Positions 5,662-63,155 of a stretch of 64,000 nucleotides of DNA are shown here, piece by piece (positions within the stretch are counted from its first letter, which is position 1; each line of letters begins with the position of its first letter). Origin of the DNA: a virus; the IMG/VR virus record IMGVR_UViG_3300045988_089680, positions 11,055-75,054 of that record. One strand, written 5' to 3'. Under the pieces are notes generated by a model. It did not search any database. It saw only the letters and a list, made by a program, of their open reading frames with translations, and had not been told where the DNA came from. The translations under genes and the position numbers were made by a program.

Positions 5662-5675
5662 AAAGTTAAAGAGCA

Positions 5676-5939
5676 ATGAAAAGATATTATTTGATTTCGT
5701 CGGAATATGACATTAAAAAACGTGAAGCAATCCTTAGTACTATTAAGGATAAAGCAATTGCTTCTTACGCAGACCTCTCAAATGACGAATACAATAGTTT
5801 TGCTTTCACAGAGGATGAAGGTAGAGAGGTGTATAAAAAGTTGATGCAAAAGTATCATTCAAGTGCGGCTTTCTTTGGAGATTCATACGAGGAGGAAGAA
5901 ATTAAGGAAATGGGGCTTGATGAGTATATAACATTTTAA
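5676..5939 (+). CDS. hypothetical small acidic protein
   Basis: First ORF after promoter module 1. ATG embedded in AAAGAGCAATG. Confidence 0.55.
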   Translation: MKRYYLISSEYDIKKREAILSTIKDKAIASYADLSNDEYNSFAFTEDEGREVYKKLMQKYHSSAAFFGDSYEEEEIKEMGLDEYITF

Positions 5940-6181
5940 TGTATAGAACAATGGAAAATAAAAACAACGTTTCAAAAAAGACTAAATATACAGTTTTAGC
6001 TCATACCTTCCATTCTTTTGATGAAGCTTGTGAATATGTGAACCGTATTGTTTCCAAGGGTGCGTCTCGTATTATTCCTCCAGTTAAAGCCTGGAGGGAA
6101 GGTAAGGTAGTCGCACAATGGGAGCCAACAGTAACTAAAGATGGTATTAGTTACAAGTCAAATGGTAATGTTAGTATTTAA
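5939..6181 (+). CDS. hypothetical protein
   Basis: TAATG stop/start overlap with the upstream ORF. Confidence 0.5.
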   Translation: MYRTMENKNNVSKKTKYTVLAHTFHSFDEACEYVNRIVSKGASRIIPPVKAWREGKVVAQWEPTVTKDGISYKSNGNVSI

Positions 6182-6199
6182 TTATAAAAAATAAGAGCA

Positions 6200-6469
6200 A
6201 TGAAGCAGACAATAAACGTATCAAGCAAAGCAGAGATTAAAGCAGCAGTAACAAGCCAATTCTGTAAAGGTTGTTATAATTACTTTGAAGGTGAAATTAG
6301 AAACGGAAATCGTTATGCGAGAGTATCATATTATCATACAAACAATAAGCTTCAGATACAAGTAACATATTGGGAAGATGGAAAGGATAAAGCTGTAGAC
6401 TGTGCTTCTCATTGTTCCTCACCCAGTGGATTGACCCAAAAAGTATCTAAATTCTTGAATGTAAAATAA
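6200..6469 (+). CDS. hypothetical protein
   Basis: ATG embedded in TAAGAGCAATG. Co-oriented and tightly packed with neighbours. Confidence 0.5.
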   Translation: MKQTINVSSKAEIKAAVTSQFCKGCYNYFEGEIRNGNRYARVSYYHTNNKLQIQVTYWEDGKDKAVDCASHCSSPSGLTQKVSKFLNVK

Positions 6470-6482
6470 AAAAATAAGAGCA

Positions 6483-7157
6483 ATGGATATGATAAGTAAT
6501 TTGGTTGCAGAGGAAAAACCAGAATATAAGATAAAGGAAAGTGGAGATTTTTCATCACTTACATCAGTTGAATTATTAGCAATATTGTTTGGCAAGAGTT
6601 CGACATCAACTCTTCAAAAGGCAAGGGGTATTCTTAATCTAACAGATGGTAGTATAAGAGGTATCTCTAAACTTACTACGAAACAGATAAGAGAAGTAAC
6701 GAATTTCACAGAACAAAAGGCTAATGCTGTCCTTGCAGCATGCGAACTTGGACGAAGAGCGCAAATAGAAGAATCCAATAATATCAACCTCGGTAGTGCA
6801 TATGGCATATACAACTTCATGAAGCCACGAATAGGTAGATTAGACCATGAAGAAGTTTGGGTAATGCTAATGGATAACGCCTTTAATCTAAAGAAGGTAA
6901 AAAAGATAAGCAGCGGAGGACTTACAGAAACTGCATTTGATGTGCGTGTTATTTTAAAAGAAGCACTTCTCAATAATTCTACAGTGATAGCCGTTGCACA
7001 TAATCATCCAAGTGGTAATAAAAGACCAAGCAAAGATGATGATGGAGTAACACGGAAGCTACAACAAGCATGTGACACCATGAGAATAAAACTGATAGAC
7101 CATGTAATCGTAACAGATTTAGGTTATTATAGTTTCTCAGAAGAAGGTAAACTATAA
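6483..7157 (+). CDS. radC: RadC-like JAB/MPN domain protein
   Basis: VAHNHPSGNKRPSKDD is the JAMM/RadC signature. N-terminal HhH-like region. ATG embedded in TAAGAGCAATG. Confidence 0.8.
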   Translation: MDMISNLVAEEKPEYKIKESGDFSSLTSVELLAILFGKSSTSTLQKARGILNLTDGSIRGISKLTTKQIREVTNFTEQKANAVLAACELGRRAQIEESNNINLGSAYGIYNFMKPRIGRLDHEEVWVMLMDNAFNLKKVKKISSGGLTETAFDVRVILKEALLNNSTVIAVAHNHPSGNKRPSKDDDGVTRKLQQACDTMRIKLIDHVIVTDLGYYSFSEEGKL

Positions 7158-7190
7158 TTCTCTAGAACAGCAAATTTTCTTCAAAAAATG

Positions 7191-7221
7191 TTTGCTATTC
7201 AAATATTTTTAAGTATATTTG
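7191..7221 (+). promoter_or_regulatory. promoter upstream of the structural operon
   Basis: TTTG at 7191-7194 and TATATTTG at 7214-7221, 19-nt spacer. Confidence 0.55.
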
Positions 7222-7300
7222 CAAACAAAAGCGTGTGAAGATGCACGTGACAGAACCGTTCGTAATCATTGCTCAATTTATATCGGGTTCTAATAACGAT

Positions 7301-7340
7301 GGTCTGCCTGCATTAACGCTCGCAGACCATTTTTATTTAA
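7301..7340 (+). terminator. leader hairpin plus T-tract between promoter and scaffold gene (possible attenuator)
   Basis: GGTCTGC-N14-GCAGACC followed by ATTTTTATTT. Lies inside the GTG-started extension of track ORF 7235. Confidence 0.4.
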
Positions 7341-7351
7341 TCACAAAAGCA

Positions 7352-8071
7352 ATGAATAAGTATTTAAGAAAGGTTCTTGAAATGCTGAAAACCAACAAGG
7401 ACATTAAGGCATTGGGGTTCAGCCGTAGAGAGTTAAAGGGTATCGCTGCCAATGTTGCCGATAAACTGAAACTCGAAGAAGATGCTACTGACGAAGATGT
7501 TAGTGAAGCAATCAGTAATGCAATTGATGATGTCTTGCCATTACTGAAACTCACTCAATCGGCAGTAGACCGCCAAGTCCAAGATTACAAACGCTCTACA
7601 GATGACGACCCAGATGACGACCCAGATGACGACCCAGAGCCAAATCGTACTAGTCCATCAAAGAAGAATCCCAAGAGCAAAAAGGATAGCGATGATGCAG
7701 ATTCCGCTACCCTAGCTGCACTCAAAGAACTGAAGGAGGTAGTCACAGCTTTACAAGGTGAGGTTAGCACACTTAAAGCTGGTAATACAACTAACAGCAG
7801 ACGCACTAAAGTTGAGAAATTACTATCCGATACAGGTAAGTTCGGAGAAAGACAGCTGAAAGCCTTCTCTCGTATGAGTTTCAAGGATGAAGAGGAATTT
7901 GAAGAGTATCTCGAAGACCTAAAAGAGGACATTGAGGCAGAGAACCAAGAAAGAGCCGATCGTGGTCTTGGAAAGCTCGGAAATATTCCTGCTCCAGACA
8001 AGAATCAAAACAACAACAAGGAGGAAGAATTAATGTCAGATGAGGACGTCAAAAAGTTGGCTCAGATGTAA
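7352..8071 (+). CDS. head scaffolding protein (acidic, coiled-coil)
   Basis: Highly charged with a DDDPDDDPDDDPEP tract and helical E/K-rich C-terminus. Lies before the capsid gene. Start moved to the ATG at 7352, after the leader hairpin. The track gives 7235. Confidence 0.55.
   Translation: MNKYLRKVLEMLKTNKDIKALGFSRRELKGIAANVADKLKLEEDATDEDVSEAISNAIDDVLPLLKLTQSAVDRQVQDYKRSTDDDPDDDPDDDPEPNRTSPSKKNPKSKKDSDDADSATLAALKELKEVVTALQGEVSTLKAGNTTNSRRTKVEKLLSDTGKFGERQLKAFSRMSFKDEEEFEEYLEDLKEDIEAENQERADRGLGKLGNIPAPDKNQNNNKEEELMSDEDVKKLAQM
7601..7636 (+). repeat. 12-bp tandem repeat (GATGACGACCCA)x3 in the scaffold gene
   Basis: Direct reading. Encodes DDDP x3. Confidence 0.9.
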
Positions 8072-8102
8072 TCATCTATTGTTTAACTTTAAAAAAGCAA
8101 AC

Positions 8103-8516
8103 ATGTCAGTTTACGAAAATTACGAACCAGATCGAAAGAAGTTTGACTCGGGTATGGATGCAGTCGTAATCCGTCAGTATAACGGAGGAATCACTGGCGG
8201 CCGTGCCCTTGATTACACTGGCTTCATTGACGAGGTTATTAAGGCTGGCCACCTAGTAGTAAAAAAGGAAGTCGATGGTGTCTACGAATACAAGCCACTC
8301 GCAATCGAAGCAAGTACGGGTAAGTATCAAGCCATTCCTGCCGATGGTACACTGCCTGCAGGTGTTGTTGTGCGTTCTCGCCTAAAGGGTGAGGCTGTAG
8401 CAATCATGGACGATGGTCGTGTTAATGATGCTGCAATGCCTTATCAGTTTAAGGACGAAGACCAGAGAACTGCTTTCAAGACAGCTCTACCAAATCTTAT
8501 TTTCGAGCACGATTAA
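8103..8516 (+). CDS. hypothetical head protein (possible decoration protein by position)
   Basis: 137-aa ORF between scaffold and capsid genes, as in a lambda-like order. Start moved to the ATG at 8103. Confidence 0.4.
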   Translation: MSVYENYEPDRKKFDSGMDAVVIRQYNGGITGGRALDYTGFIDEVIKAGHLVVKKEVDGVYEYKPLAIEASTGKYQAIPADGTLPAGVVVRSRLKGEAVAIMDDGRVNDAAMPYQFKDEDQRTAFKTALPNLIFEHD

Positions 8517-8554
8517 ATAGTGCTCTAGTGTTAAATTAATAATTGCACAAAAGT

Positions 8555-10585: not shown

Positions 10586-11058
10586 AACTCTCAACCTCTC
10601 AGTCTGCGCTCAATAACTTTTTTCAGTCCGCTATGGCGATAATAAAGCAAGAAATCCTCACTGCTTATGCCAAGTTAGGAGAAGAATGTAATGCAAGGAT
10701 AAGAGACCGCTCGGCAGAGGAAAGTTGGATAGACCATACAGGAAACCTACGAAGCTCCATCGGTTACGCCATCTTTGACTACGGAAGGAAACAAATAGAA
10801 TCAGCCTTTGCTTCCATAGGAAATGGTTCTAATGGTTCACAAGAAGGAAGACAAATGATAGCTGACCTAGCAAAGGAATACTCACAGGTTTACGCATTGG
10901 TAGTAGTCGCGGCTATGAACTATGCAGACTTTGTAGAAGCTAAAGAAAATAAAGATGTGCTTGCATCCACTGAGTTATGGGCTCGTTCTGTCGTTGATGG
11001 TAAACTAAAGCTCGCTGTGGATAAAGCTGTAAGTAGAATCAATCAGATAAGGCTATGA
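10576..11058 (+). CDS. HK97 gp10-like tail completion/neck protein
   Basis: WIDHTGNLRSSIGY resembles the HK97 gp10 family DTGxLRxSI motif. Overlaps both neighbours. Confidence 0.5.
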   Translation: MGIKLSTSQSALNNFFQSAMAIIKQEILTAYAKLGEECNARIRDRSAEESWIDHTGNLRSSIGYAIFDYGRKQIESAFASIGNGSNGSQEGRQMIADLAKEYSQVYALVVVAAMNYADFVEAKENKDVLASTELWARSVVDGKLKLAVDKAVSRINQIRL

Positions 11059-12140: not shown

Positions 12141-12250
12141 ACCCAAGTAGCTCAGTTGGTTAGATTGCGAGACCAAATCCTGTCCTGTAAAATCCAGTTG
12201 GTCTTTAAAAAGATGGTTGAGAGACGCAGGTTCGAGTCCTGCCTTGGGTG
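12141..12250 (+). tRNA. atypical tRNA-like element (acceptor stem, D-loop and T-arm present; no canonical anticodon arm)
   Basis: ACCCAAG pairs with CTTGGGT. D region is TAGCTCAGTTGGTTAGA. T-arm is GCAGG-TTCGAGT-CCTGC. The centre is an 8-bp hairpin (GAGACCAA/TTGGTCTT) with a 21-nt loop. 110 nt in total. Confidence 0.5.
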
Positions 12251-33188: not shown

Positions 33189-34190
33189 ATGGAGAGTAAA
33201 ACTTACGTATTCGGAGAGAATGGGCCTACTACTGGTGGCGGTCTTAATAGCATTCTGGCTATGCTCCCAGCACTCATGCAGAAGCAGGGCGTAGACCCAA
33301 GCCTTTTTGCCCTTTGCAATGGCAAGAGCAATGGCAATGGTTGGGGCGAAAATCTATTCGCCATCTTGCTTCTCTTCATCCTCATGGGTAGAGGCAACCT
33401 CTTTGGAGGTGGCTTTGGTGGCGGTATGATGCCTAACGGACAAGGTGGCGTTGTTCCTATGCTCAACAACGATGCGAACACAGCAGTTATCATGCAAGCT
33501 GTTCAGCGCAATGGTTATGATGTTCAGAGCTTGGCAACAGCCCTCAACACTTCGAGCGACGCTGTAATGGCTGCTATCAACAGTTTAGGTCAGCAGATAT
33601 GCAACATCGGCAGTCAGATGGGCTTGAATACCAATCAGATAATCACCGCTCTCATGCAAGGTAACAACGCTATTGCTACACAGTTGGCAGAGTGTTGCTG
33701 CAAGACAAACAACGCTATCACCGCAATGGACGGTAATGTGAAGTTAGCAATGTGTCAGCAGACAGGTGCTTTGACAAATGCTATCAACAACGTGGCTGTT
33801 AGTCAGGAGCGTGGCTTCTCTAATCTTGCTTACGAAACTCAGCGTCAGACTTGCGACTTGCAAAACGCTATCAAGGACAGTACCCAGACTATCATTGACG
33901 GGCAGAAGCAAGCCGAAATGCGCGAGCTTCAGAACAAGATTGACTCGCTTCGCGAAGAGAACAGCACCTTCAAGTCTTCTGCTATGACTTCGCAGATTGT
34001 CGGTCAAGCTATAGCACCTATCAATGCTGTACTGACAGGTTTGCAGCAAGAAGTAGCAGGAATCAAGTGCAAATTGCCCGAGACAGCGACTGTAGCTTAC
34101 AGCCCCTTTACTGCCGTTCCTAACTGTGTAGCAGCTCAGATGGGACTGTACGGTTTTAATGCCGTGAATGGTGCAAGCTTCTGGACTTAA
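33189..34190 (+). CDS. Gly-rich / TM / Cys-containing coiled-coil protein, unknown function
   Basis: GNLFGGGFGGGMMPNGQGG, hydrophobic LFAILLLFILMG, then Q/N/A-rich helical repeats with CCC and several Cys. Confidence 0.5.
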   Translation: MESKTYVFGENGPTTGGGLNSILAMLPALMQKQGVDPSLFALCNGKSNGNGWGENLFAILLLFILMGRGNLFGGGFGGGMMPNGQGGVVPMLNNDANTAVIMQAVQRNGYDVQSLATALNTSSDAVMAAINSLGQQICNIGSQMGLNTNQIITALMQGNNAIATQLAECCCKTNNAITAMDGNVKLAMCQQTGALTNAINNVAVSQERGFSNLAYETQRQTCDLQNAIKDSTQTIIDGQKQAEMRELQNKIDSLREENSTFKSSAMTSQIVGQAIAPINAVLTGLQQEVAGIKCKLPETATVAYSPFTAVPNCVAAQMGLYGFNAVNGASFWT

Positions 34191-36542: not shown

Positions 36543-36683
36543 TATATTAATATTGAGTTAATGAATAGTTAAATCCTTTGTCTTAGCTGTTCTAAGCTTG
36601 TATAAAATCCCCATCATATACATATACACATTTTAGAAAATATACGTTTACATAGAAAAACTACATTTAGACCAAACGCTATC

Positions 36684-37937
36684 CTATTTATCCTCGTTTA
36701 TATCAAGTATATAATCTATTACCTTACGATTTGCATCGTCTATTTTTTTTCGATTAAAATTGATATACACTTGTGTAACAGCAGCTCCTGTCGAATAAGA
36801 ATGTCCAAGAGCACGACTTATAACATCTTCTGGTATATCAAGTTCGCTTGCCAATGTAGCCCATGTATGCCTTGCCCAGTATGATGATAGACGAGGGAAC
36901 AAAGGTGTGTACTCCTTGATGAATTTATGGCGATGCGTTTTTGAAAATTTCGGGTTTTGAATTATAACGCATTTCCCTACTCTTTTAAGCTGATAGTCAA
37001 AACTACCTATAAAAGATTGTGTAGTCTTATATCTTTCTAAGATGTCTAGTAAGTACTCGTTGCCTTTGTATCGATTTATTATCTCAAGTGCTTCTGGTTC
37101 TACTTTTATAGAATACAACTTTTTGGTCTTCCGGCGTCTGTAGTTAATTCTACCTTGACTATCTATTTCTCTCAATTCGCACAAATCAGCAATGTTAATG
37201 CCAATTAGATATATACATAACTTAAATAAGTCTATAGTTCGCTGTAGATGAGGATCGGCTACTGCAAACAATGACCTAACCTCATCTAAAGTTAAAGAGC
37301 GTTTTACTGTCTGTTCCGTTTTAATCTTAAACACACGAAAAGGATAATTCTGAGTAATCTCGTTATCTAAAGCATCATTGAAAACAGCTCTAATACTACG
37401 AAAATGCATGTTACGTCCATTTATAGTAGGAGAATACCTCCGTAGGAAAATGTCAAATCCGGTAAGCCAGTCTTTTGTTATGTTTTCAAATGTTTTTGAC
37501 TTAATATGATTGTCATACTCTAACATCTTCTTTGCTGTTAATAAATATATCTTTTTTGTTCGCATTGCAGAACGAGAGTTCGCAAAAGAAAGAAAACGAT
37601 TATAGAAACTGTTAGACGCAGCAACAGCAGGATCCAGCATTTCTTGCACTTTATTTTTTATTTGTGTTGCTGTCAGTTTTGTTAATTTTCCATCCTTGGT
37701 TAAATCCATGATTATATTAGACACTTTATTGCGTAGAGTGTCTATATAACTTTGAAGAGCTTTCTTATTAGGATGGTCTTTAATACGTTCTTTTTCTGCA
37801 TCCCATTGAGTGGGATATATTCTCACATTCAAAGATATATAAGCAGAAGACCCCTTCTTATTTATGCCGATTTTAAGAGGAGCTTCTTCACCACGCTTTA
37901 CTGAACGCTTATCTAAATATAAATGTACTGTTGCCAT
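36684..37937 (-). CDS. int: tyrosine recombinase (phage integrase) with N-terminal arm-binding-type domain
   Basis: ARHTWATLA, LGHS and TQVY fit the R..HxxR..Y catalytic pattern. The N-terminus (VHLYLDKRSVKRGEEAPLKIGI) is typical of Bacteroidota integrases. Confidence 0.85.
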   Translation of the reverse strand: MATVHLYLDKRSVKRGEEAPLKIGINKKGSSAYISLNVRIYPTQWDAEKERIKDHPNKKALQSYIDTLRNKVSNIIMDLTKDGKLTKLTATQIKNKVQEMLDPAVAASNSFYNRFLSFANSRSAMRTKKIYLLTAKKMLEYDNHIKSKTFENITKDWLTGFDIFLRRYSPTINGRNMHFRSIRAVFNDALDNEITQNYPFRVFKIKTEQTVKRSLTLDEVRSLFAVADPHLQRTIDLFKLCIYLIGINIADLCELREIDSQGRINYRRRKTKKLYSIKVEPEALEIINRYKGNEYLLDILERYKTTQSFIGSFDYQLKRVGKCVIIQNPKFSKTHRHKFIKEYTPLFPRLSSYWARHTWATLASELDIPEDVISRALGHSYSTGAAVTQVYINFNRKKIDDANRKVIDYILDINEDK

Positions 37938-37954
37938 AGTTTATCGTGTAGAAA

Positions 37955-38009
37955 TATTTGCGGTTTATTTGCGGTTTATTTGCGGTTTATTTGTGGTTTA
38001 TTTGCGGTT
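37955..38009. repeat. 11-bp tandem repeat TATTTGCGGTT x5 (one G->T variant)
   Basis: Direct reading. Begins 18 bp upstream of the int start codon. Related half-copies at 38232-38254. Confidence 0.9.
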
Positions 38010-38269
38010 TATTTTACCCACATTTACTCAAAAATAATTAAGAATAATGTCTTTATATGCCTGTGGCGGCCAAGCCTATCTGTCTGACTTTCAAGCTATA
38101 ACTCTTGCCTCTATCCGATTCTATCTTCAACGTGCTATGTGCCTCTATAATAGGTTTTATGCATTGTATGGGAGTATAAATTTTTGAACCAAGTAACTGA
38201 TATTCACCACTTTACAAAAGATTACCATTGCAATTGCGGTGTATTTGCGGTTTTTTCGTGTTTGGCACC

Positions 38270-39265
38270 TTATAATGATGCTGCCATTTTGAAAGCTGAT
38301 ATAATACGAGCCCTCATATTGTATAGAGAATCTATATTGTCAATCTGTATCCATTCGTTGGTCTTGTAGGAATCAACAGGGAAGCAAATCTTAATAGAAG
38401 AACTACGCTTCGACTTTACTCGAATAATCCATCTCCAGACAGAACCACCTTGGTTGACAGTAAAATATGACTTGAACTTCTTGTATTGTATTTCTGAGCA
38501 TTTATCTTTCAGAACATCTTTTACAATCTCGTATGCTCTTAACTCAATTCTGTTTATTATAGGAGTCTCGTCAGTTTGAGGAGGTGTAGGTATAAAATCA
38601 TTCATTAATGACTTTATTGTACTTTTGTAAACAGAATGTAAAGATTTATCATATCCTTCTCCGAGGGCAGACTTGGTCGCATATTCTACGAAATCATCAC
38701 TCGGACACATTATGTTGTTATTGATAAAATCAGAAAGCATATGTCTTAGTCTTATCTCTGTGAACCTTTCTATTATTTTTAGCTCGTCTAAGCTGTTTTT
38801 AGAGAACAACCCTAATAATTCTATACCTACAGAATCACAATTGTTCATATCGAAAATAAAGAACGGTTTAGCATCCATTAAGTTTGTCTTATCAAAATCA
38901 GCAAAGAACCAATACTCAATACCGTTAGTTAAAACTGCAAAACGTGCGTTAGTAGCTACATAATATTTAGATAGTTGTGGGACAAACGGGGCAAGTTCTT
39001 TTGAGCATTGCTTACATTCGACTATCATCACTGGCTCTTCGTCCTTGAAAATAGCATAATCCACCCTATCACCTTTGTTGGATATGTCGCATGGCATTTC
39101 TGGTACAACCTCCAAGGGATTGTACACATCATAGCCCAAAGACAGCAATAACGGCAACACAAAAGCGTTCTTTGTGGCTTCCTCCGTGCCGATATGGTCT
39201 TTCATCTTTTCTATCTTTGTTGATAGATTATCTAAATTTTCTGTTAAGTTCATTGCCCTATACAT
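38270..39265 (-). CDS. HsdR_N-like PD-(D/E)xK nuclease-domain protein (stand-alone)
   Basis: GDRVDYAIFKDEEPVMIVECKQ gives a D...ExK motif. N-terminal NAFVLPLLLSLGY resembles the type I R-subunit N-terminal family. The C-terminal ~150 aa are unassigned. Confidence 0.55.
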   Translation of the reverse strand: MYRAMNLTENLDNLSTKIEKMKDHIGTEEATKNAFVLPLLLSLGYDVYNPLEVVPEMPCDISNKGDRVDYAIFKDEEPVMIVECKQCSKELAPFVPQLSKYYVATNARFAVLTNGIEYWFFADFDKTNLMDAKPFFIFDMNNCDSVGIELLGLFSKNSLDELKIIERFTEIRLRHMLSDFINNNIMCPSDDFVEYATKSALGEGYDKSLHSVYKSTIKSLMNDFIPTPPQTDETPIINRIELRAYEIVKDVLKDKCSEIQYKKFKSYFTVNQGGSVWRWIIRVKSKRSSSIKICFPVDSYKTNEWIQIDNIDSLYNMRARIISAFKMAASL

Positions 39266-39359: not shown

Positions 39360-39468
39360 CAACGTAAAACTTAATATAACAATACAAAGATATGCAAATA
39401 TATTGTAATGTCGGTATTGTTTTTAGTTAAATGTACTAAGAGCAATTAAAAACATAAAGAAAACGGAT

Positions 39469-39726
39469 ATGAGATGCACTAAGAGCAATGGGTCGTCTAC
39501 TTCTATATTGAAGAGAACCGCAATTTATGGACTTTTAAACTTGTGGAAACAAGACATAGGTTGGAATAGAAAAACAAGAAAGGAGAAGAAAATCATCGTG
39601 TGGTTCATCCTTTCGTTTATAGTTATGGCTATAACGTTTGCAAGCATTCTGACCCTTCCTGCTGTAGTCAACTTTCTTATGGCAAACAATGCAATGAATA
39701 GAAATAAAATAGAAGTGGAGGAATAG
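39469..39726 (+). CDS. small membrane protein
   Basis: One TM helix (IIVWFILSFIVMAITFASILTLPAVV). Confidence 0.4.
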   Translation: MRCTKSNGSSTSILKRTAIYGLLNLWKQDIGWNRKTRKEKKIIVWFILSFIVMAITFASILTLPAVVNFLMANNAMNRNKIEVEE

Positions 39727-42013: not shown

Positions 42014-42349
42014 ATGAGTACTACAAGAAAGAATCAGTTGAAGAAGGTCATGCAACTCGCCTGGCAGTTCGTCAAGAAAAACGGCTACACTCTCTCGGTA
42101 GCCTTGAAGATAGCTTGGGCAAATATAAAACTCCACACTGCAATGCAGACACGAATCGTTAAGTTCTACTTTCAGAAGGTGGACGGAACAATCAGAGAAG
42201 CGTTCGGTACGCTTAAATCATCCATCCTCCCTCCAACCAAGGAGAGCGGACGAACACCGAACCCAACCTGCCAAGTCTACTACGACACAGAAAAAGAAGC
42301 ATACAGAAGTTTTAAGAAAGCAAATCTCGTAAGAGTAGAGATGCACTAA
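42014..42349 (+). CDS. DUF2693-like (SH3-type) protein
   Basis: VKFYFQKVDGTIREAFGTL...YYDTEKEAYRSFKKANLVRV matches the pattern I recall for DUF2693. The stop lies inside CACTAAGAGCAATG. Confidence 0.45.
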   Translation: MSTTRKNQLKKVMQLAWQFVKKNGYTLSVALKIAWANIKLHTAMQTRIVKFYFQKVDGTIREAFGTLKSSILPPTKESGRTPNPTCQVYYDTEKEAYRSFKKANLVRVEMH

Positions 42350-42481
42350 GAGCAATGAAATAAGAATAGAAAAAGAAAGTAAGAGGGTGCGAGCGAGCAC
42401 ACACTAAGAGCAATGAATTATAGATAGATAGTTAAGCAACGGTTCACAAAAATAGAAGTTAAACCATAAATAGTAACAAAA

Positions 42482-42654: not shown

Positions 42655-43143
42655 ATGGAAGAAAAAGAAATCATGCTCACACCCTCAGTAAACAAGGACG
42701 GAATGACCTCACTCGAAATTGCAGAGGTCACGGGTAAAGAACACTATCACGTTATGAGAGACATTCGCAGCCTTTTGGAACAAGGCGTATCACAATCCAA
42801 CTTTGGTTTCTCATCGTATCAGCAACCGCAACCGAATGGTGGTTACAAGGAAGTACCCATGTACAACCTCACTCCAAAAGGCTGCTTGATACTTGCAAGC
42901 GGTTATAACGCTGTTCTTCGAGAGAAGATGATCGACCGCTTGTTTGAGTTGGAAGCCAAGGAGCGACAGTTCAAGCCACTTTCGGCATACCCCATGCTCA
43001 CCACAGAGCGCAAGAAAGCCGAGGAGTTAATGAGCAACACCTCTATGGAAGTGTTGGAGGACGCATCACTACTCATAGAGAATCATATCTTGAGAAGGAA
43101 ACTCCAAGAAGCTGGTATTGAGTATAAAGAACGTGTCTTTTAA
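42655..43143 (+). CDS. Rha-family phage regulatory protein
   Basis: MTSLEIAEVTGKEHYHVMRDIRSLLE...YNLTPKGCLILASGYN. Confidence 0.65.
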   Translation: MEEKEIMLTPSVNKDGMTSLEIAEVTGKEHYHVMRDIRSLLEQGVSQSNFGFSSYQQPQPNGGYKEVPMYNLTPKGCLILASGYNAVLREKMIDRLFELEAKERQFKPLSAYPMLTTERKKAEELMSNTSMEVLEDASLLIENHILRRKLQEAGIEYKERVF

Positions 43144-43523: not shown

Positions 43524-43557
43524 TTTAAACGAGCGCAAAACTGCGCTTATTGTCGGA

Positions 43558-43861
43558 TTTCCAAATGGGCACACAAAAGGCACACGCAAACAACTAAATA
43601 TCAACGACTTACGTAAGGTCTGATTTTAAAATGGGCACACAAAGGGCACACGGTGGGCACGCCAAGGGCAAACCTAACACCTTAAATATCAATAACTTAT
43701 AGAATATCAGATTTTAGAATGGGCACACCAACTTTAAAAAGTGGCAAGATTTTTAAGTCTCCCAAATTTCCAAATGGGCACACAAAGGGCACACGCAAAC
43801 AACTAAATATCAACGACTTACGTAAGGTCTGATTTTAAAATGGGCACACAAAGGGCACACG
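43558..43861. repeat. iteron array: two 95-bp direct repeats (43558-43652, 43767-43861) carrying AATGGGCACAC units
   Basis: AATGGGCACAC at 43564, 43630, 43718, 43773 and 43839. Each is followed by a GGGCACACG half-repeat. The two 95-bp copies differ at 1 position. Confidence 0.85.
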
Positions 43862-45353: not shown

Positions 45354-45590
45354 ATGGCAAACAACAATGACACAAAATGTGTAGATATGACCCTAAAGGG
45401 TTATTACGAAAATCTACCAAAGGCGACTTATCCTAAAAAGGATTTTCTCGCACGTGTGATGATTGAGTGCGATGTCTCTTTCACCACCGCCAACAACTGG
45501 GTAAAAGGTCATACAAAACCTGTGAAGCAAAGTCAGATTTCGGCACTTAGTAAAATAACTGGCATACCAGAAGAGAATCTATGGCAATAG
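45354..45590 (+). CDS. Cro/antirepressor-like small HTH protein
   Basis: 78 aa, first gene rightward of the divergent promoter region. ATG at 45354. Confidence 0.45.
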   Translation: MANNNDTKCVDMTLKGYYENLPKATYPKKDFLARVMIECDVSFTTANNWVKGHTKPVKQSQISALSKITGIPEENLWQ

Positions 45591-46141
45591 AGTTTTATCA
45601 ATATAACGATGAACTTTGGTTCAAAACCAACGATGGAAGAAATCAGGTTTTTACAGAACATGATTCTGAAATCATTCAGAAGTTAATAGATGCAATCCGT
45701 GAACGTTATCCCTCTGCATATAAGGCCCTTGAACTTGAATATCAGAAGAGTTCACTAAATGCACCATATTACCAGTATTTGATAGTGAGAAGGTTCTGTA
45801 AATGCAATTTCGGAAAACTCGAAACAACATCTTACGATATAGAATCTTCTGGAAAATTCAACTTCGAGAAAGTAGAATGTCCGTTACGCGGTGAATGTAA
45901 GAATGAAGGTGTAATATGTTGCCCACGCTTTAATTCTAAGCTCTCAGAGGCAGAGCTAAGAGTTATGAGACTCGTTTACGAAGGTGTTAGTAAGGACGAA
46001 ATATCAACACGTTTGTTCATAGCACCGAACACTATTAAGAATCACATCAAATCAGTATATCTGAAATTAGGCATCCATGACCAAATTGAGTTTGTGAGAT
46101 ATGCAAACGATAATAATTTGTTTAACGATTTAAAGCACTAA
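45581..46141 (+). CDS. LuxR/GerE-type HTH regulator with a Cys-rich N-terminal region
   Basis: LSEAELRVMRLVYEGVSKDEISTRLFIAPNTIKNHIKSVYLKLG. Confidence 0.65.
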   Translation: MAIEFYQYNDELWFKTNDGRNQVFTEHDSEIIQKLIDAIRERYPSAYKALELEYQKSSLNAPYYQYLIVRRFCKCNFGKLETTSYDIESSGKFNFEKVECPLRGECKNEGVICCPRFNSKLSEAELRVMRLVYEGVSKDEISTRLFIAPNTIKNHIKSVYLKLGIHDQIEFVRYANDNNLFNDLKH

Positions 46142-46146
46142 GAGCA

Positions 46147-47100
46147 ATGAGTATGATTAAAAGAAGCAATGAGATTACTATTTCGAAGAATGTTAAAATG
46201 ATGGTTTACGGACAGGCTGGTATGGGTAAGACAACTTTCGCCCTCTCTGCACCTAAGCCTTTGTTGCTTGACTTTGATAATGGTGTCAAGCGTGTTAATA
46301 CAGCACATTTGGATGATAGCGTAGGTATCGTTCAGATTGATAGTTGGCAAGACGTGATGAATTTGCTGAACTACAACAAGAATGACTTGGCAGAGTTCGA
46401 TACCATCGTAGTAGACACCATCGGAAAGATGATAGACTACATCATTCAATATCGCTGCAACGGTCGCAACCCGCAGATTCAAGACTGGGGAACTATTAAC
46501 AATGACTTCAAGTGGTTTACTTCGTCCCTCTCATCACTTAACAAGAATATTGTATTTGTTGCACATCGTGACACTCGCAAGGAAGGGGAAAGCACAGTAT
46601 TCATTCCTGCGCTCCGTGAGAAGAACTACAATAGTATCGTAACTGACTTGGACCTTCTTGGCTATCTCGAAATGAGAAGTGAGAATGGTCGTCAGATGAG
46701 AACTATCACTTTTGACCCGACAAGCCGAAACGACGGAAAGAATACATGTCAGCTTCCTGGTTGTATGCAGATACCAGTAATCCTTGATGCAAACGGACAG
46801 CCAACAGCCCCGAACAACTTCATCGCCACTCAGATTCTCTCACGTTATCAGTCTATGATAGCACAGAAGGAGAAAAAGGTTAAGGAGTACAATAAGGCTC
46901 TTGACGAAATAAAAGAAAGCGTACAATTGATTACAGATGCACAAGGAGCTAACCATTTCATCGGGCACATCAAAGATTATGCAAACTTGGGCAACTCAGT
47001 AATTCTTCATGCAAGAAGTCTGTTCACCGAGAAGGCCAGTGCACTGAAGTTGGTTTACAATAAGGAGACCAAGCAATACGAGGACCCACAAGAAGCATAA
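46147..47100 (+). CDS. AAA_24 / Sak4-like RecA-fold ATPase
   Basis: Walker A in MVYGQAGMGKTTFALSAPKPLLLDFDNG. Walker B in FDTIVVDTIG. Confidence 0.65.
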   Translation: MSMIKRSNEITISKNVKMMVYGQAGMGKTTFALSAPKPLLLDFDNGVKRVNTAHLDDSVGIVQIDSWQDVMNLLNYNKNDLAEFDTIVVDTIGKMIDYIIQYRCNGRNPQIQDWGTINNDFKWFTSSLSSLNKNIVFVAHRDTRKEGESTVFIPALREKNYNSIVTDLDLLGYLEMRSENGRQMRTITFDPTSRNDGKNTCQLPGCMQIPVILDANGQPTAPNNFIATQILSRYQSMIAQKEKKVKEYNKALDEIKESVQLITDAQGANHFIGHIKDYANLGNSVILHARSLFTEKASALKLVYNKETKQYEDPQEA

Positions 47101-52996: not shown

Positions 52997-53737
52997 ATGC
53001 TAAACGGTTGGATTAAGATACCTCGCAACGTCCTTGAGTGGGAATGGTGGGATAAACCAGAAATGGTTGTCCTGTACCTCTACATGCTTGCGTCAGCAAA
53101 TAAAGAAGATACACTTTGGCATAGCAAGGAGATAAAGAGGGGACAGTTTGTAACAAGTCTAAATACTATAGAACGAGATAATCCTAAGCTTACTAAAAAG
53201 ATAATTCGTACATGCCTTAAACGATTCCAAGACGCAGGGACAATAAGCATAGAGTCTACGAACAATTATTCAGTTATAACAATTTGTAATTATGAAGAAT
53301 ATAATTGTACGAAAAATGTTTCTTGCGAAGAGATCAAAGAAGATAGTCAAGAAAATGAACATCAAGAAATATCTCCTGTACTTCCAGAAAAGAAAGAAAC
53401 GAAACCAAAGAAAACCAAGGAAGAAATCAAGGAAGCAACAAAGAAACGAACACAAGAGTTCTACGATAGTTTGATTCCTTACGTCCCTACTTATGGTAGG
53501 GAAATGGTAAGAGAGTTCTTCGATTATTGGAGTGAAGCTAATAAATCTGGTTCTAAACTAAGATTTGAACAAGAGAAAACATGGGATTTGAGCAGAAGAC
53601 TCGCACGATGGTCAAATCATAATAAAGAATATAAGAGCAATGAAGACAAAAAGAATAGATCAAATAACAATACCGCAGCACAACGATTTAGAGAAGCAAC
53701 CGACCTCGTTGAATCCCTGTTGTCCTCGCAAGACTGA
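52997..53737 (+). CDS. replication initiation / replisome organizer-like protein
   Basis: N-terminal winged-helix-like WIKIPRNVLEWEWWDKPEMVVLYLYML...RGQFVTSLNTI. Start uncertain (52916 TTG, 52955 or 52997 ATG). Confidence 0.5.
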   Translation: MLNGWIKIPRNVLEWEWWDKPEMVVLYLYMLASANKEDTLWHSKEIKRGQFVTSLNTIERDNPKLTKKIIRTCLKRFQDAGTISIESTNNYSVITICNYEEYNCTKNVSCEEIKEDSQENEHQEISPVLPEKKETKPKKTKEEIKEATKKRTQEFYDSLIPYVPTYGREMVREFFDYWSEANKSGSKLRFEQEKTWDLSRRLARWSNHNKEYKSNEDKKNRSNNNTAAQRFREATDLVESLLSSQD

Positions 53738-54458
53738 GATAACAGCGAAATACGGAAGAACAGCAAAAGAGTTTTTGCTCACGGTCACACCGTCTCAACA
53801 GTCTGTATTGTATAAGAATATACATGATTGCTACTTTGGTGATTATCCTACCCTTGGAGAGCTTGACGCTACATACACCCCTAAAACTGCACAAGCATGG
53901 CTCGTACCCCAACTTTGGGATCTGTCTGAATATTGTGGAATAAAGGAGAAATTCACATCTAATCAGTTGACTCAATGCTCAGATATTATTGCAAATGACT
54001 ACCGCTATTTGAAGGTATCGGAGATAATGCTTTTCTTTGCGAAATTCAAAAGAGGTTGCTATGGTCGTTTTTGGGGCGCGGCTGACCCTCTTGTCATTAT
54101 GGAAGCCTTAAAGGCGTTTGGTCTTGAGAGGAAAACAGCATATTACGACCAAGCAAAAAAGGAAGAGGAGTTAAGACTTGCGAATAACAATCACCACTGC
54201 ACATGGGATGAATATGCAGAACGAAGTGGACAAAAATGTAAGCCATTTCCATTTTCAAGGGATTCGGGTAAACCTCGTAAAGTAGAAAAGACCAAAGACC
54301 ACCCAAAGATAAATATAGAAGAAAGAATACTTGATATTGCCAATTCTCTTATATGCAACTTATACAAATGTGATAAAGACACATTGTTGGAAATGAAAAA
54401 TGCATTCAAAACCAAATACGGATGCACTCCAGAAGAATATATATCAAGAAAAAGTTAG
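53640..54458 (+). CDS. hypothetical protein overlapping the upstream gene by 98 nt
   Basis: 272-aa ORF. The ATG sits in TAAGAGCAATG inside the upstream coding region. No later in-frame ATG near the overlap. Confidence 0.5.
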   Translation: MKTKRIDQITIPQHNDLEKQPTSLNPCCPRKTEITAKYGRTAKEFLLTVTPSQQSVLYKNIHDCYFGDYPTLGELDATYTPKTAQAWLVPQLWDLSEYCGIKEKFTSNQLTQCSDIIANDYRYLKVSEIMLFFAKFKRGCYGRFWGAADPLVIMEALKAFGLERKTAYYDQAKKEEELRLANNNHHCTWDEYAERSGQKCKPFPFSRDSGKPRKVEKTKDHPKINIEERILDIANSLICNLYKCDKDTLLEMKNAFKTKYGCTPEEYISRKS

Positions 54459-54552
54459 CTAAGGTTAATTTATTGGTTTTCAGTAAATTACAAGTTTTGA
54501 AATTTGGTCAATCCCCCCAAAATGACTACCTTTGCAATAGATAATTAAAACA
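54450..54552 (+). promoter_or_regulatory. promoter module copy 2
   Basis: Same ~105-bp module as at 5546 and 62214, with -7 TACCTTTG. CCCCCC replaces AGCAAAAAAA in the spacer. Overlaps the stop of the upstream gene. Confidence 0.65.
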
Positions 54553-54571
54553 TTTATAAAAAACAAGAGCA

Positions 54572-54793
54572 ATGAAAAGAATAAAGTATTATGTTATGGA
54601 ACAGTATGTTGAAAAGACAGCAAAAGTCTTTGAAACTACACGCAAAGCAGAGGCAGAAAAATTCCTTCATCGTCTTTGCAAATCATTCGAGAATGATATA
54701 AAATACTCAGTTGAAATTAAGAATCCAGGTAATTTCACAGCACGTTTACTTTCATGCCAAGAAAGTTATGAATACTGGATAGAAAAAAGATAA
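54572..54793 (+). CDS. hypothetical protein
   Basis: First ORF after promoter module 2. ATG in CAAGAGCAATG. Confidence 0.5.
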   Translation: MKRIKYYVMEQYVEKTAKVFETTRKAEAEKFLHRLCKSFENDIKYSVEIKNPGNFTARLLSCQESYEYWIEKR

Positions 54794-59795: not shown

Positions 59796-59796
59796 T

Positions 59797-59883: not shown

Positions 59884-59904
59884 CCCAGAAATGGAGGTGT
59901 AGGT

Positions 59905-60237: not shown

Positions 60238-60264
60238 CCGCTTTATGGCATAAATAGATAGATT

Positions 60265-60462: not shown

Positions 60463-60589
60463 ACATGCACATTGCAAAATATATATGGAAACTTATCATT
60501 GTGATATTTACAACAAGGATTTTTTTCCTCATGAATTATGTGGTGATGATGATGAAGAAAGCCACTTTGAAAGTATAATAAAAGAGTAA
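60434..60589 (+). CDS. 51-aa Cys/His-rich ORF (below the track cutoff)
   Basis: Hand translation MNIKCCLHCKHAHCKIYMETYHCDIYNKDFFPHELCGDDDEESHFESIIKE. Preferred over the antisense ORF 60336-60692. Confidence 0.3.
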   Translation: MNIKCCLHCKHAHCKIYMETYHCDIYNKDFFPHELCGDDDEESHFESIIKE

Positions 60590-60637
60590 CTAACCATCCT
60601 TTCCTTGACAATAGGGAGAGGATTAAAATAGCAAAAC

Positions 60638-60781
60638 ATGAATAATATAGAACATATAGAAAACATATACAGACTTTATTACAACATTCCAAGGTTTAGA
60701 GAAGCTTGCAGTCCAATATTTACAAGCTCACCAAAAGAATACGGACAATATCTGCAAAACAAAAAACACAAAAGAAAATGA
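60638..60781 (+). CDS. 47-aa ORF (below the track cutoff)
   Basis: MNNIEHIENIYRLYYNIPRFREACSPIFTSSPKEYGQYLQNKKHKRK. ATGA overlap with the next ATG. Confidence 0.3.
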   Translation: MNNIEHIENIYRLYYNIPRFREACSPIFTSSPKEYGQYLQNKKHKRK

Positions 60782-60921
60782 GCAAAGTAACAGCAATTAA
60801 TATAATTATTGACAAGAAGAATCAATTACAGAGATATAAAGAGTTACATATCTTTTCTGTTGATATTGATGACGTTTTTACATGGTTAAATAACATACAA
60901 AAAGAATTGGAGGACTATTAA
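60778..60921 (+). CDS. hypothetical small protein
   Basis: ATG-started portion (MSKVTAINIII...) of the track ORF, which starts at a TTG at 60706. Confidence 0.35.
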   Translation: MSKVTAINIIIDKKNQLQRYKELHIFSVDIDDVFTWLNNIQKELEDY

Positions 60922-61283
60922 TGAACAGAGAACAGGCCAAAAAACTGCTGCCTATTATACAGGCATTTGCAGAAGGTAAAACTATACTGGTACAAGAAGA
61001 TATTGATTGGCGTTATCTGAGCGATGACGCTGATTTTAATTTAAATCCGCTAAGATACCGTATCAAGCCAGAACCCAAGTACCACTCATTCCTCAACGCA
61101 GAAGAGTGTTGGCAGGAAATGTTAAAACACAAACCATTTGGATGGATTGAAGATAAGGAAGCTAATGAATACTTCAATGTTCAATGTATTGCATCTGGAG
61201 ATAAAGCAATAGACCTATACACAAGATTATTAAAAAGATGTGTTTTTATAGATGGCACGCCATTCGGCATTAAGGAGGAATAA
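60921..61283 (+). CDS. hypothetical protein
   Basis: TAATG overlap with the upstream gene. 120 aa. Confidence 0.45.
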   Translation: MNREQAKKLLPIIQAFAEGKTILVQEDIDWRYLSDDADFNLNPLRYRIKPEPKYHSFLNAEECWQEMLKHKPFGWIEDKEANEYFNVQCIASGDKAIDLYTRLLKRCVFIDGTPFGIKEE

Positions 61284-61285
61284 TC

Positions 61286-61813
61286 ATGATATACAAAGCA
61301 AAAAAAGGAAGCAAGGCTTACGAGTACATCAAGAGCATTTGTGAAGCCGAGGACAAAGAGTTTAAGGCTTATGTCAATAGAGTGGAAGAAGCTGTCGGAT
61401 TTGAGTTAGATAAATTTGGTGGCTACATGCCATTCTCCACACTAACCCGGATTTGCGAAGTCACTTCCATCTTGGTAGACAAGGAAAAATGGGAGCAGCT
61501 TGACAAAAAGCTATGGAAAAAGAAAGAGGTTATCAAAGATTATGTACGAATAATTCCGACCAAAAGAACCAAGCAAGGCAAAGCTATTAGTGCTGTCTTG
61601 TCCTCATATAACGCAGTCACAAACAGTTTCCAAATTCTCAAAGAGTTAGGACTGAATGAAGGAAGCGGAAATCGTATAACATTACCCCAACTTCGCTACA
61701 CAAATGGACATTGTTTTATCCGTTTAGGCGACAATGTTCGAGCCGACAAGGATAATCCAGATCTTGTAGAAATCACAATGTCAGAATATGAACAATTAAT
61801 TGGGAAGGAATAA
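61286..61813 (+). CDS. hypothetical protein
   Basis: 175 aa. AGGAGG upstream. Confidence 0.5.
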   Translation: MIYKAKKGSKAYEYIKSICEAEDKEFKAYVNRVEEAVGFELDKFGGYMPFSTLTRICEVTSILVDKEKWEQLDKKLWKKKEVIKDYVRIIPTKRTKQGKAISAVLSSYNAVTNSFQILKELGLNEGSGNRITLPQLRYTNGHCFIRLGDNVRADKDNPDLVEITMSEYEQLIGKE

Positions 61814-61818
61814 AAACT

Positions 61819-61932
61819 ATGAGAACAATCAAATTCAAGGGCAAATGTATCAGTCCTGAGGTTAAAGGCAAAACAGCGTGCGATTCGCTCCTTACGATCC
61901 CTGACGGAACGGACTGCTGTTACACTAAATGA
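61819..61932 (+). CDS. 37-aa ORF (below the track cutoff)
   Basis: MRTIKFKGKCISPEVKGKTACDSLLTIPDGTDCCYTK. It is the last ORF before the terminator. Confidence 0.3.
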   Translation: MRTIKFKGKCISPEVKGKTACDSLLTIPDGTDCCYTK

Positions 61933-61958
61933 CATTGCAATGAATACCTTCGATTAGT

Positions 61959-61993
61959 GCATCTTGACCGTGAGGTTAGGATGCCTTTTTATT
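61959..61993 (+). terminator. rho-independent terminator (copy 2 of the 5361 hairpin)
   Basis: Same GCATCTTGACC-GTGA-GGTTAGGATGC hairpin followed by CTTTTTATT. Confidence 0.7.
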
Positions 61994-62213
61994 GTATTAA
62001 GTTTTGTTAACACAATGTTAATAAGTTATTTTCTCCTATATTTGTCATATTAAGTATCTGTAACATTTAGTAAATTTGGTTAAGTTAATTAAAAGTTAAA
62101 TACTTTGTTTAAGCTGTTCTAAGCATATCAAATTTTCCCTCCATATACTTACATATATTTTCGAAATTAGAGGGTTACAGCGGAAATTGGGTTAAATGTT
62201 AAAATCCTTTTTG

Positions 62214-62329
62214 TTTAAAAGTTAGCTAAAGTTAAACTATTGGTTATCAGTAAATTATAAGTTTCTAAATTTGGTCAATAGCAAAAAAATGACTACCTTT
62301 GCAATAGATAATTAAAACAATAACAACTT
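62214..62329 (+). promoter_or_regulatory. promoter module copy 3
   Basis: Near-identical to 5546-5661, including TTAGCTAA, the -33 TTTG and the -7 TACCTTTG. Confidence 0.7.
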
Positions 62330-62344
62330 TAAAAATAAAGAGCA

Positions 62345-62587
62345 ATGAAGACAAATGAATTAACAGACAAGCAGAAAAGTCTAAGGTATTCGATAAGCGT
62401 TGACCTCGAATGTATGAACGATGCAGATTATACAAAACAATCCGCATTAGATTGGTTTAAAACTGACGAATGCAAAGAAGCTTATGATGGATATATTGTA
62501 AATGGTATCTATGAACCCACAAATGAAAACTTCTTAGATGTGGTTAAAGAAGTGTATTTCGCTTGTGGATATGATAAAAAGTGGTAA
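62345..62587 (+). CDS. hypothetical protein
   Basis: First ORF after promoter module 3. ATG in AAAGAGCAATG. Confidence 0.5.
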   Translation: MKTNELTDKQKSLRYSISVDLECMNDADYTKQSALDWFKTDECKEAYDGYIVNGIYEPTNENFLDVVKEVYFACGYDKKW

Positions 62588-62602
62588 TAAAACAAAAGAG
62601 CA

Positions 62603-62860
62603 ATGGAAAAGATAATTGATACAATCAAAGTAAACAGAGAGGAATTGATTTCTAAGTATTCCAAAATGAAGAAAGAAATCGAAGTCCTTTCGGAAGGAAT
62701 TAAGCAAGCAACAAAACTTAAAAAGTATGATGTCGCCGATAAGTTGTGGATAAAACGCTCTGACCTTAATACAGAGGCAAAAGATATTAACATGGCAATC
62801 AATGACCTAACAAACGCACTCAATCATCTTGGTGAGAGTACAGATATATTCTGGGGATAA
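62603..62860 (+). CDS. hypothetical coiled-coil protein
   Basis: ATG in AAAGAGCAATG. Confidence 0.5.
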   Translation: MEKIIDTIKVNREELISKYSKMKKEIEVLSEGIKQATKLKKYDVADKLWIKRSDLNTEAKDINMAINDLTNALNHLGESTDIFWG

Positions 62861-62879
62861 TATACATAAGATAAGAGCA

Positions 62880-63155
62880 ATGAATAACGACTTTGGAATC
62901 TACACGGATTTATATAATTCTATAATCAATGACTTGGAAAGTGGTAAATTTTTACCAAATATGAAAGCCATTCGTAACCAGATTAGAGAAGCAAAAAAAT
63001 CAATAGACGTTTTAAGGAAAGGTTCTGTCTTTTGCCAAAACCTTGAGATATTGGAGAAAACAGAACGTAAATTACAGTTGACAAAAGATAAGCTAAATGC
63101 AATGAACGCCGTGGTAGTTTATATAAAAAATAGACAAAAAGTAAAAGAGCAATGA
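62880..63155 (+). CDS. hypothetical protein
   Basis: In-frame ATG inside TAAGAGCAATG, preferred over track start 62829. Confidence 0.45.
   Translation: MNNDFGIYTDLYNSIINDLESGKFLPNMKAIRNQIREAKKSIDVLRKGSVFCQNLEILEKTERKLQLTKDKLNAMNAVVVYIKNRQKVKEQ

Follow-up and report, generated by a model that had tools for sequence, protein, structure and literature searches.

Antisense RNAs of phages are known mainly as regulators of single operons or as molecules acting on host genes. The c4 RNA of phages P1 and P7 acts on the icd-ant operon, and the CI RNA of satellite phage P4 acts on seqA/seqC; in both cases the leader of an early or anti-repressor operon offers two tandem sites to a small antisense RNA from the same phage. 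RegA of phage T4, a protein, binds the start-codon regions of many early mRNAs and recognizes a degenerate AU-rich element. In Bacteroides thetaiotaomicron, the small RNAs FopS and GibS repress their targets through pairing at start codons (PMC11697453). Bacteroides makes no use of Shine-Dalgarno sequences and lacks Hfq and ProQ; longer seeds may be required in its small RNAs (PMC7366714). The stretch analysed here, termed the window, comprises 64,000 nucleotides (nt) of the viral record IMGVR_UViG_3300045988_089680 (positions 11,055 to 75,054) and contains a short motif, AAGAGCAATG, that recurs at the starts of early and accessory genes. The phage belongs to an uncultured human-gut family with Bacteroidales-type promoters, and only scattered phage genes resemble Bacteroides phage genes (68-70% identity). 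Judged from the sequence, the motif is likely to be the common binding site of two phage-encoded antisense small RNAs (sRNAs); most likely it lets the phage switch off many swappable genes together.

Exact copies of AAGAGCAATG number 14 on the + strand of the window, where about one is expected. The count of AGAGCAATG is 15 against 0.94 expected, with none of 100 dinucleotide-preserving shuffles reaching 15, and AAGAGCAAT occurs 16 times against 1.33 expected. The excess thus holds in the comparison with shuffles that the first-pass annotation of this DNA had recommended, and every position at which that annotation had placed the motif is right, as are the long identical versions that it had pointed out, GAGATGCACTAAGAGCAATG at 39471 and 42338 and CACTAAGAGCAATG at 42402 and 46136. 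Near-matches are barely in excess (126 with up to two mismatches vs. 92 expected) and copies with one mismatch are not enriched; the motif is therefore either exact or absent. Two exact copies had been overlooked. One of them (33324-33333, + strand) falls within the open reading frame (ORF) 33189-34190, where its ATG is not in frame to serve as a start; it has probably arisen by chance and does not belong to the system. The other (5348-5357) is on the minus strand, contrary to the view that all copies share the + orientation, and it constitutes the key to the explanation: the + strand of the same stretch belongs to a candidate small RNA, sRNA1.

The large terminase gene occupies positions 3763-5277, and sRNA1 (5317-5393, + strand), a predicted trans-acting small RNA of about 75 nt, is located in the intergenic stretch after it. 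Its putative promoter (5280-5310, +), as read from the sequence, consists of a -33 TTTG (5280-5283), a 19-nt spacer, and the -7 box TAACTTTG (5303-5310), and fits the sigma-ABfr consensus of Bacteroides, TTTG/TAnnTTTG (PMC7366714); the -7 box is retained in all sRNA1 variants of related contigs. In the minimum-energy fold (z = -5.3), CAUUGCUCUUAGU is left unpaired between two hairpins, i.e., a 5' hairpin in which 5316-5323 pairs with 5341-5348 around a 17-nt loop, and a GC-rich terminator hairpin (5361-5386, from a terminator scan) that is followed by a U tract (5388-5393). This unpaired part is complementary to the motif at every position. The predicted seed as a whole (5346-5366, +; TTCATTGCTCTTAGTGCATCT) is the reverse complement of the motif and its extended form, with perfect complementarity over 21 nt to 42339-42359 and 89% complementarity over 28 nt to 39472-39499.

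Relatives of the phage were represented by 80 viral contigs retrieved from IMG/VR with the terminase protein, and in 78 of them sRNA1 stands directly after the terminase gene. Across 16 distinct homologues the hairpins vary: the loop may be long or short, and the stems change. Among the 19 pairs, eight show compensatory double changes, and 93% of the cells are paired, compared with 29-43% in slid alignments; none of 500 shuffles matches the observed values. The 12-nt linker CAUUGCUCUUAGUG is constant across the relatives save two loci (L018 and L077), where the changes are from C to U only and retain G-U pairing with the motif. Variants of sRNA1 differ in length by 11-13 nt, which rules out that the stretch is coding. 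Gene callers left this gap empty in public assemblies. No family in Rfam 15 matches sRNA1 at its gathering threshold or fits it at permissive E-values; membership in BTnc201 (RF04177) was rejected (14.9 bits against a threshold of 105), the resemblance being one of architecture only. No match to sRNA1 was found among GenBank phages, where the best terminase identity is 33%, and hence there is no cultured relative or annotation. The 16-mer TTCATTGCTCTTAGTG, too short a query for a library of 596 Gb, yielded in a scan of that size one real sRNA1 among the at least 120 loci listed, namely in a Prevotella metagenome-assembled genome (L168). One 53.7-kb viral contig (IMGVR_UViG_3300045988_113792, comprising loci L011 and L077) holds two different terminase genes, each with its own sRNA1 variant; the two proteins are 93% and 82% identical to that of the window. 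This arrangement suggests tandem prophages or a chimeric assembly.

The second candidate, sRNA2 (7227-7334, +), is a predicted RNA of about 108 nt with three stem-loops, and shows no similarity to sRNA1 in either sequence or scaffold. Its putative promoter (7191-7221, +; TTTG at 7191-7194, a 19-nt spacer, and TATATTTG at 7214-7221), likewise read from the letters, is conserved in relatives, and a terminator at 7301-7328 is followed by a T run. The seed CATTGCTC (7267-7274) is located in the apical loop of stem-loop 2 (fold z = -3.65), the same loop position being found in both variants folded; it is CAUUGCUC in the window and CAUUGCUCUU in most relatives. Homologues of sRNA2, to which the window copy is about 78% identical, occur in 70 of the 80 contigs, and in most relatives a second antisense copy is located about 2.5 kb downstream with its own promoter and terminator. 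Both sRNAs thus have the predicted layout of independent units (TTTG-19 nt-TAnnTTTG boxes at one end, hairpins followed by T runs at the other), conserved in relatives, and both have the features of trans-acting small RNAs, a conserved structure and an unpaired seed, as seen in the covarying pairs of sRNA1 and the loop seed of sRNA2. Two unrelated scaffolds presenting the same unpaired sequence are hard to explain except by selection for pairing.

A mechanically called ORF (7235-8071) and public gene calls at the equivalent place begin inside sRNA2. The first late gene probably begins only at the ATG in position 7352, in front of which stands AAAAGCAATG, a version of the motif with one mismatch. 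Taken together with the empty gap at sRNA1, the ORF run across sRNA2 by gene callers points to a blind spot of annotation. Stem-loop 1 of sRNA2 (7231-7248) holds GAAGAUGCAC in the same sense as the extended target sites, and this sequence is complementary to GUGCAUCUU in the sRNA1 of this phage (5358-5368). The two sRNAs could pair with each other, or may have a common origin with the target site.

Putative targets of the first kind (class A) carry the motif at gene starts, all on the + strand. In the island between the two sRNA genes they are found at 5669-5678 (87-amino-acid (aa) ORF 5676-5939, the first gene behind the repeated promoter D1-a described below; duplex -17.1 kcal/mol), 6193-6202 (89-aa ORF 6200-6469), and 6476-6485 (224-aa RadC-like ORF 6483-7157). 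Farther downstream, the motif heads a 272-aa ORF (53640-54458; site 53633-53642) and the first genes behind promoters D1-b (73-aa ORF 54572-54793; site 54565-54574) and D1-c (80-aa ORF 62345-62587; site 62338-62347), as well as an 85-aa ORF (62603-62860; site 62596-62605) and a 91-aa ORF (62880-63155; site 62873-62882). The predicted targets in the window include genes of the inter-sRNA island such as the RadC-like one, a Sak4-like annealase gene, and small genes behind three repeated promoters. Ten ATGs within the motif had been taken for starts of adjacent ORFs; nine of them do open ORFs of 73-317 aa, whereas the tenth (63152, in the class-A-type site 63145-63154) opens only 21 codons (ORF 63152-63217). 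A context related to the latter site heads a 31-aa gene call in L287.

When gene-strand copies were counted over the window plus the 80 terminase loci (n = 330), 315 of them (95%) proved to have an ATG from which an ORF of 40 aa or more runs, compared with 33% of all ATGs. The ORFs so headed fall into 42 unrelated protein families, mostly hypothetical and 50-130 aa long. Predicted duplexes with the sRNA1 seed range from -16.6 to -29.3 kcal/mol at motif-headed starts vs. -8.3 +/- 2.7 kcal/mol at other starts. It might be supposed that the motif was merely copied along when longer segments (promoter-leader repeats or paralogous genes, for example) were recently duplicated, given that three copies stand behind a 123-nt repeated promoter and that some extended copies have 20 nt in common. 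The variety of the families headed by the motif speaks against this, and the confinement to recently duplicated segments that the first-pass annotation had named as a ground for dismissing the motif is not observed. The 10-mer is constant over 155 distinct contexts while its flanks vary, and recent duplication is therefore excluded as the cause; moreover, CACTAAGAGCAATG at the start of the Sak4-like gene is conserved in relatives down to approximately 63-72% protein identity. As an explanation of the motif, duplication is left with next to no probability.

The placement of the motif at -7 to +3 of start codons would also suit a translational operator or enhancer that a protein or the ribosome recognizes, i.e., a RegA-type repressor site or a phage-specific initiation signal, with the sRNAs acting as decoys or being complementary by coincidence. 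The binding of T4 RegA to start codons in many early mRNAs provides a precedent. The upstream flanks of the motif are A-rich, as is usual in Bacteroidota initiation regions, and A is favoured there at, e.g., -3, -6, and -11 to -15 (PMC7366714). The motif itself carries G at -5 and -3 and C at -2 instead of the favoured A, and is not in general use across genes: it is missing from the structural genes (about 30 late genes) and from the relatives without sRNAs. In these respects it resembles neither a Shine-Dalgarno sequence nor an A-rich initiation signal. In addition, the extended sites AGAGCAATT and AGAGCAATA contain no ATG, no candidate RNA-binding repressor was identified, and chance complementarity in two independent conserved scaffolds is very unlikely. 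An operator of this kind is accorded a low probability. The generic initiation or coupling signal proposed in the first-pass annotation is likewise not supported, as TAA, which was said to be often the stop codon of the preceding gene, precedes nine of 15 copies and is a real stop in only two cases (42349 and 46141); stop-to-start coupling through TAA was accordingly rejected. A supposed contrast with structural genes using GGAGG-type sequences was not borne out either, GGAG or GAGG being found upstream of five of 30 late starts vs. 12 of 60 other starts.

The second kind of predicted target (class B) is an extended form with the consensus [G/T][C/T]ACTAAGAGCAAT, in which ATG is not needed. 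Two such sites stand in tandem in the leader region of the early rightward operon, downstream of a promoter at about 39350: the first (39428-39447, +; ATGTACTAAGAGCAATT) is in the 5' leader and has no ATG, and the second (39471-39490, +; GAGATGCACTAAGAGCAATG; duplex -20.7 kcal/mol) covers positions +3 to +22 of the first early ORF (39469-39726). This ORF encodes 85 aa with a hydrophobic stretch, which suggests a membrane segment. Three ATGs of extended sites had been noted to open only mini-ORFs (MK*, MNYR*, and MGRLLLY*), and these are correctly read; at 39471/39488, however, the site of MGRLLLY* is at the same time part of the 85-aa ORF. Close relatives retain the tandem pair, and so do phages of the majority type, where the two sites are 45 nt apart behind a TATCTTTG promoter. 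Another tandem pair comprises 42338-42357 (+; GAGATGCACTAAGAGCAATG), which overlaps the stop codon of ORF 42014-42349 (phrog_1086) and precedes an anti-repressor-like gene (42655-43143) by about 300 nt, and the intergenic site 42402-42415 (+; CACTAAGAGCAATG). One site (46136-46149, +; CACTAAGAGCAATG; duplex -29.3 kcal/mol) belongs to both classes: within it, a regulator gene (45581-46141) ends and the Sak4-like annealase gene (46147-47100) begins. Probably the extended tandem sites give stronger control over the early operon and over the region upstream of the anti-repressor gene. Covariation between extended sites and the terminator arm of sRNA1 was considered as well; it held in three contigs, failed in the majority-type phages, and was not counted as evidence.

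A further contact may involve the loop of the sRNA1 5' hairpin (5322-5339, +; TTGTTTTAATTATCTATT), which in this phage and those most closely related to it is complementary to the 5' leaders of three accessory-operon promoters. These are copies of a 123-nt repeat (D1; 81-95% identical), all on the + strand: D1-a (5542-5664; -7 box TACCTTTG at 5626-5633 and leader element AACAGATAATTAAAACAA at 5635-5652), D1-b (54443-54565; leader element 54536-54552), and D1-c (62210-62332; leader element 62303-62320, perfectly complementary to 5322-5339 over 18 nt). Of six sequences, five combine the long sRNA1 loop with the leader element, and none of 73 short-loop contigs has the latter, although this joint occurrence is effectively one evolutionary event. 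An element of about 82 nt that begins with TTATCTAAGC-type direct repeats is found at 5440-5521, 36578-36659, and 62105-62186, i.e., twice shortly before a repeated accessory promoter and once where the late block ends, ahead of the integrase.

The distribution of the motif among genomes appears to follow that of sRNA1. Early-region loci (804 kb) contain 148 sense copies and no antisense copy. Two loci, L083 and L086, have neither sRNA1 nor the motif; L077, with its mutated seed, has no exact 10-mer, yet it has two extended copies without ATG. Sak4 relatives that lack the motif at the Sak4 gene have none elsewhere in the locus. About 65 loci of other phages with a phrog_1086 gene have no functional copies, and 850 kb of unrelated genome sequence added only two copies. 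As the motif is present or absent genome by genome, the sRNA/motif system would be passed on or lost as a unit. Antisense matches in other phage families (L238, L248, and others) were dismissed as chance coding matches. No replacement motif or alternative pair of seed and tag was found in the motif-less relatives, and a candidate, AAGGAGTATG in L077, proved to be internal coding repeats.

The proposed mechanism joins results that are computed: the enrichment of the motif, the complementarity, the gene-like layout of the sRNAs and the covariation in their stems, the joint presence of sRNA and motif in genomes, and the coincidence of breakpoints with the motif presented below. The two sRNAs flank a variable accessory island that begins after the terminase gene and gives way to the late block. 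The first would expose CAUUGCUCUUAGU between its hairpins, and the second CAUUGCUC in a hairpin loop; either could pair over -7 to +3, and often to +5, at the start codons of at least ten early and accessory genes. Such pairing would exclude the ribosome and repress translation. At the extended sites, pairing over 12-21 nt would be long enough to silence or destabilize the whole transcript, while the 5' loop of sRNA1 would make a second contact over 18 nt with the leaders of the three accessory-operon promoters. Since many unrelated genes carry the same tag, the seed could not drift. Among the three roles put forward in the first-pass annotation, that of a regulator-binding site is hence the best supported, as two sRNAs hold the exact complement unpaired; that the regulator would be an RNA had not been foreseen.

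Several points weigh against this interpretation. Promoters, terminators, and pairing of both sRNAs are predictions, and we infer the production of the RNAs, their pairing in vivo, repression as the effect (including its direction), and the timing. The seed of sRNA1 is not wholly free, as its first C and the preceding UU are paired in the predicted 5' hairpin. Small-RNA regulons do not usually have an identical 10-mer at all their targets, and such a sequence could equally be a site for recombination or for a protein. A search among the relatives for a lineage in which seed and tags had changed together found none, and hence no direct covariation of seed and target was seen; the co-occurrence of sRNAs and motif rests on a small number of independent losses, all in one phage family. 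For the extended complementarity there is no clear covariation, and the GATGCAC-extended sites of the majority-type phages fit the sRNA1 arm of the window type better than their own. Finally, the role of the extended sites could be silencing, cleavage, or titration.

The motif also coincides with the joints of mosaic genomes. Among 8,297 distinct ends of similarity blocks between related loci, 9.6% are located within 10 nt of the motif vs. 0.4% at random, and the pile-up at its edges is 24 times chance, with left ends clustering at -11 to +1 and right ends at +10 to +13. A breakpoint within 12 nt of the start was found for 89% of motif-headed genes vs. 34% of other gene starts, a contrast inflated by the conserved structural genes among the control starts. 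An identical terminase protein occurs in at least 23 metagenome-assembly contigs, and the six of these examined differ in the set of cassettes between the terminase gene and sRNA2, nearly all cassettes being motif-headed. These patterns, together with the motif being exact or absent, would be expected if it were primarily a recombination joint, kept for the exchange of accessory genes by a Sak4-type annealase or some site-specific enzyme, with the sRNAs secondary or unrelated. Such an origin would leave unexplained the presence of two unrelated sRNA genes with an exact unpaired complement, an invariant seed, and covarying stems, as well as the extended operon-leader sites away from cassette boundaries and the fact that the operon leaders match the loop of sRNA1 over 18 nt. 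Besides, joints at gene boundaries would be favoured by selection alone. As the primary function, recombination is thus considered unlikely; as a second role, it is compatible with binding of the sRNAs. The junction role suggested by the first-pass annotation is accordingly supported as a pattern, though not as a cause of recombination, by the pile-up of breakpoints.

Being the sole sequence common to otherwise unrelated cassettes, the tag would double as a joint for cassette exchange between related phages, in addition to its probable function in sRNA binding. A wider scenario, possible although doubtful, is that the tag serves this gut-phage family as a shared "plug": tagged cassettes would be spliced into arrays and thereby put under the two sRNAs, giving an integrase-less cassette system with RNA silencing, in which the seed is frozen by dozens of exchangeable targets and the extended sites tie the sRNAs to the choice between lysis and lysogeny or to superinfection immunity. 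No integron integrase adjoins the arrays; the only integrase-like ORF of the window (36684-37937) was not scanned against family libraries. Nor was any attC-like structured site found, the junction being a plain 10-mer without an imperfect inverted repeat.

Some other elements of the window are worth describing. Between the integrase-like ORF (36684-37937, minus strand) and an endonuclease-like ORF (38270-39265, minus strand), five tandem copies of the 11-nt repeat GGTTTATTTGC and a sixth, non-tandem copy occur (37941-38031 and 38217-38263); a regulator or a recombinase could bind to them. In the gene-free stretch after the anti-repressor region, three copies of a unit of about 96 nt with repeated AAATGGGCACACAAAGGGCACACG-type elements (43557-43861) look like an iteron-type replication origin; the same GGGCACAC repeats follow a terminator in L208 and L209. 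Upstream of the terminase gene (13-3232; 1-2470 in L283-L288), a 692-aa Amidoligase_2 / DAM-like / GNAT-like protein and two further proteins, ParB_N-like and ATP-grasp (D-Ala-D-Ala ligase C-like), are encoded, as labelled by Pfam, and this gene set suggests modification of DNA or nucleotides. A search of the whole window against Rfam at gathering thresholds returned only a weak tRNA match (12141-12250, +; 36.3 bits, 110 nt), and ARAGORN finds no tRNA in the window; the match is either a degenerate or interrupted tRNA-like element or false.

If the interpretation is true, an uncultured human-gut phage family appears to run an intragenomic regulon in which one tag connects dozens of exchanged genes with two sRNAs. 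It would provide a simple rule for finding co-regulated accessory genes, maybe with anti-defence or host-modulating functions, and an example of RNA control in Bacteroidota, without Hfq and Shine-Dalgarno use. It would also tie post-transcriptional control to the mechanics of phage mosaicism.

Each of the described systems resembles this one in part. As in the case of sequences at module boundaries of mosaic phages, short shared sequences at gene boundaries coincide with mosaic joints, and as in integrons, arrays of small promoter-less cassettes stand behind a common promoter. In contrast to both, the 10-nt joint contains a start codon and has a matching antisense RNA, and neither an integron integrase nor an attC-like site accompanies it. 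The RegA regulon is comparable in that many early mRNAs share an element overlapping the start codon, which allows a coordinated shut-off of translation; here, the recognizer is apparently an RNA instead of a protein, and the element is exact instead of degenerate. With FopS and GibS of B. thetaiotaomicron, the phage sRNAs have in common the host phylum, the promoter type, and a short seed region followed by a terminator hairpin, as well as the (here predicted) repression of several mRNAs by pairing beside or over the start codon without Hfq or ProQ (PMC11697453, PMC7366714). FopS and GibS differ in being chromosomal, in regulating polysaccharide-utilisation loci, and in pairing imperfectly, whereas the phage targets carry an identical 10-mer; the phage sRNAs do not match the Rfam models of FopS and GibS.

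In phages, a close parallel is provided by c4 and CI. The tandem sites of the early leader (39428/39471) and those before the Ant-like gene (42338/42402) reproduce their two-site arrangement, while there is no homology in sequence or structure. The c4 and CI RNAs are processed from the operon that they target, whereas sRNA1 and sRNA2 are free-standing putative genes near the terminase gene, with over 30 kb separating them from the early leader. Another difference is their match to the start codons of ten or more unrelated genes, and two unrelated scaffolds here share one seed. While c4 and CI diversify into immunity types, the seed is identical across the family, and no immunity specificity classes are seen. 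A literature search found no description of this combination of sRNAs and tag. Antisense small RNAs and phage RNA immunity are known types of mechanism; a many-target, exact start-codon tag within a phage genome, two scaffolds with one seed, and a tag that is at the same time the joint of cassettes appear to be new.

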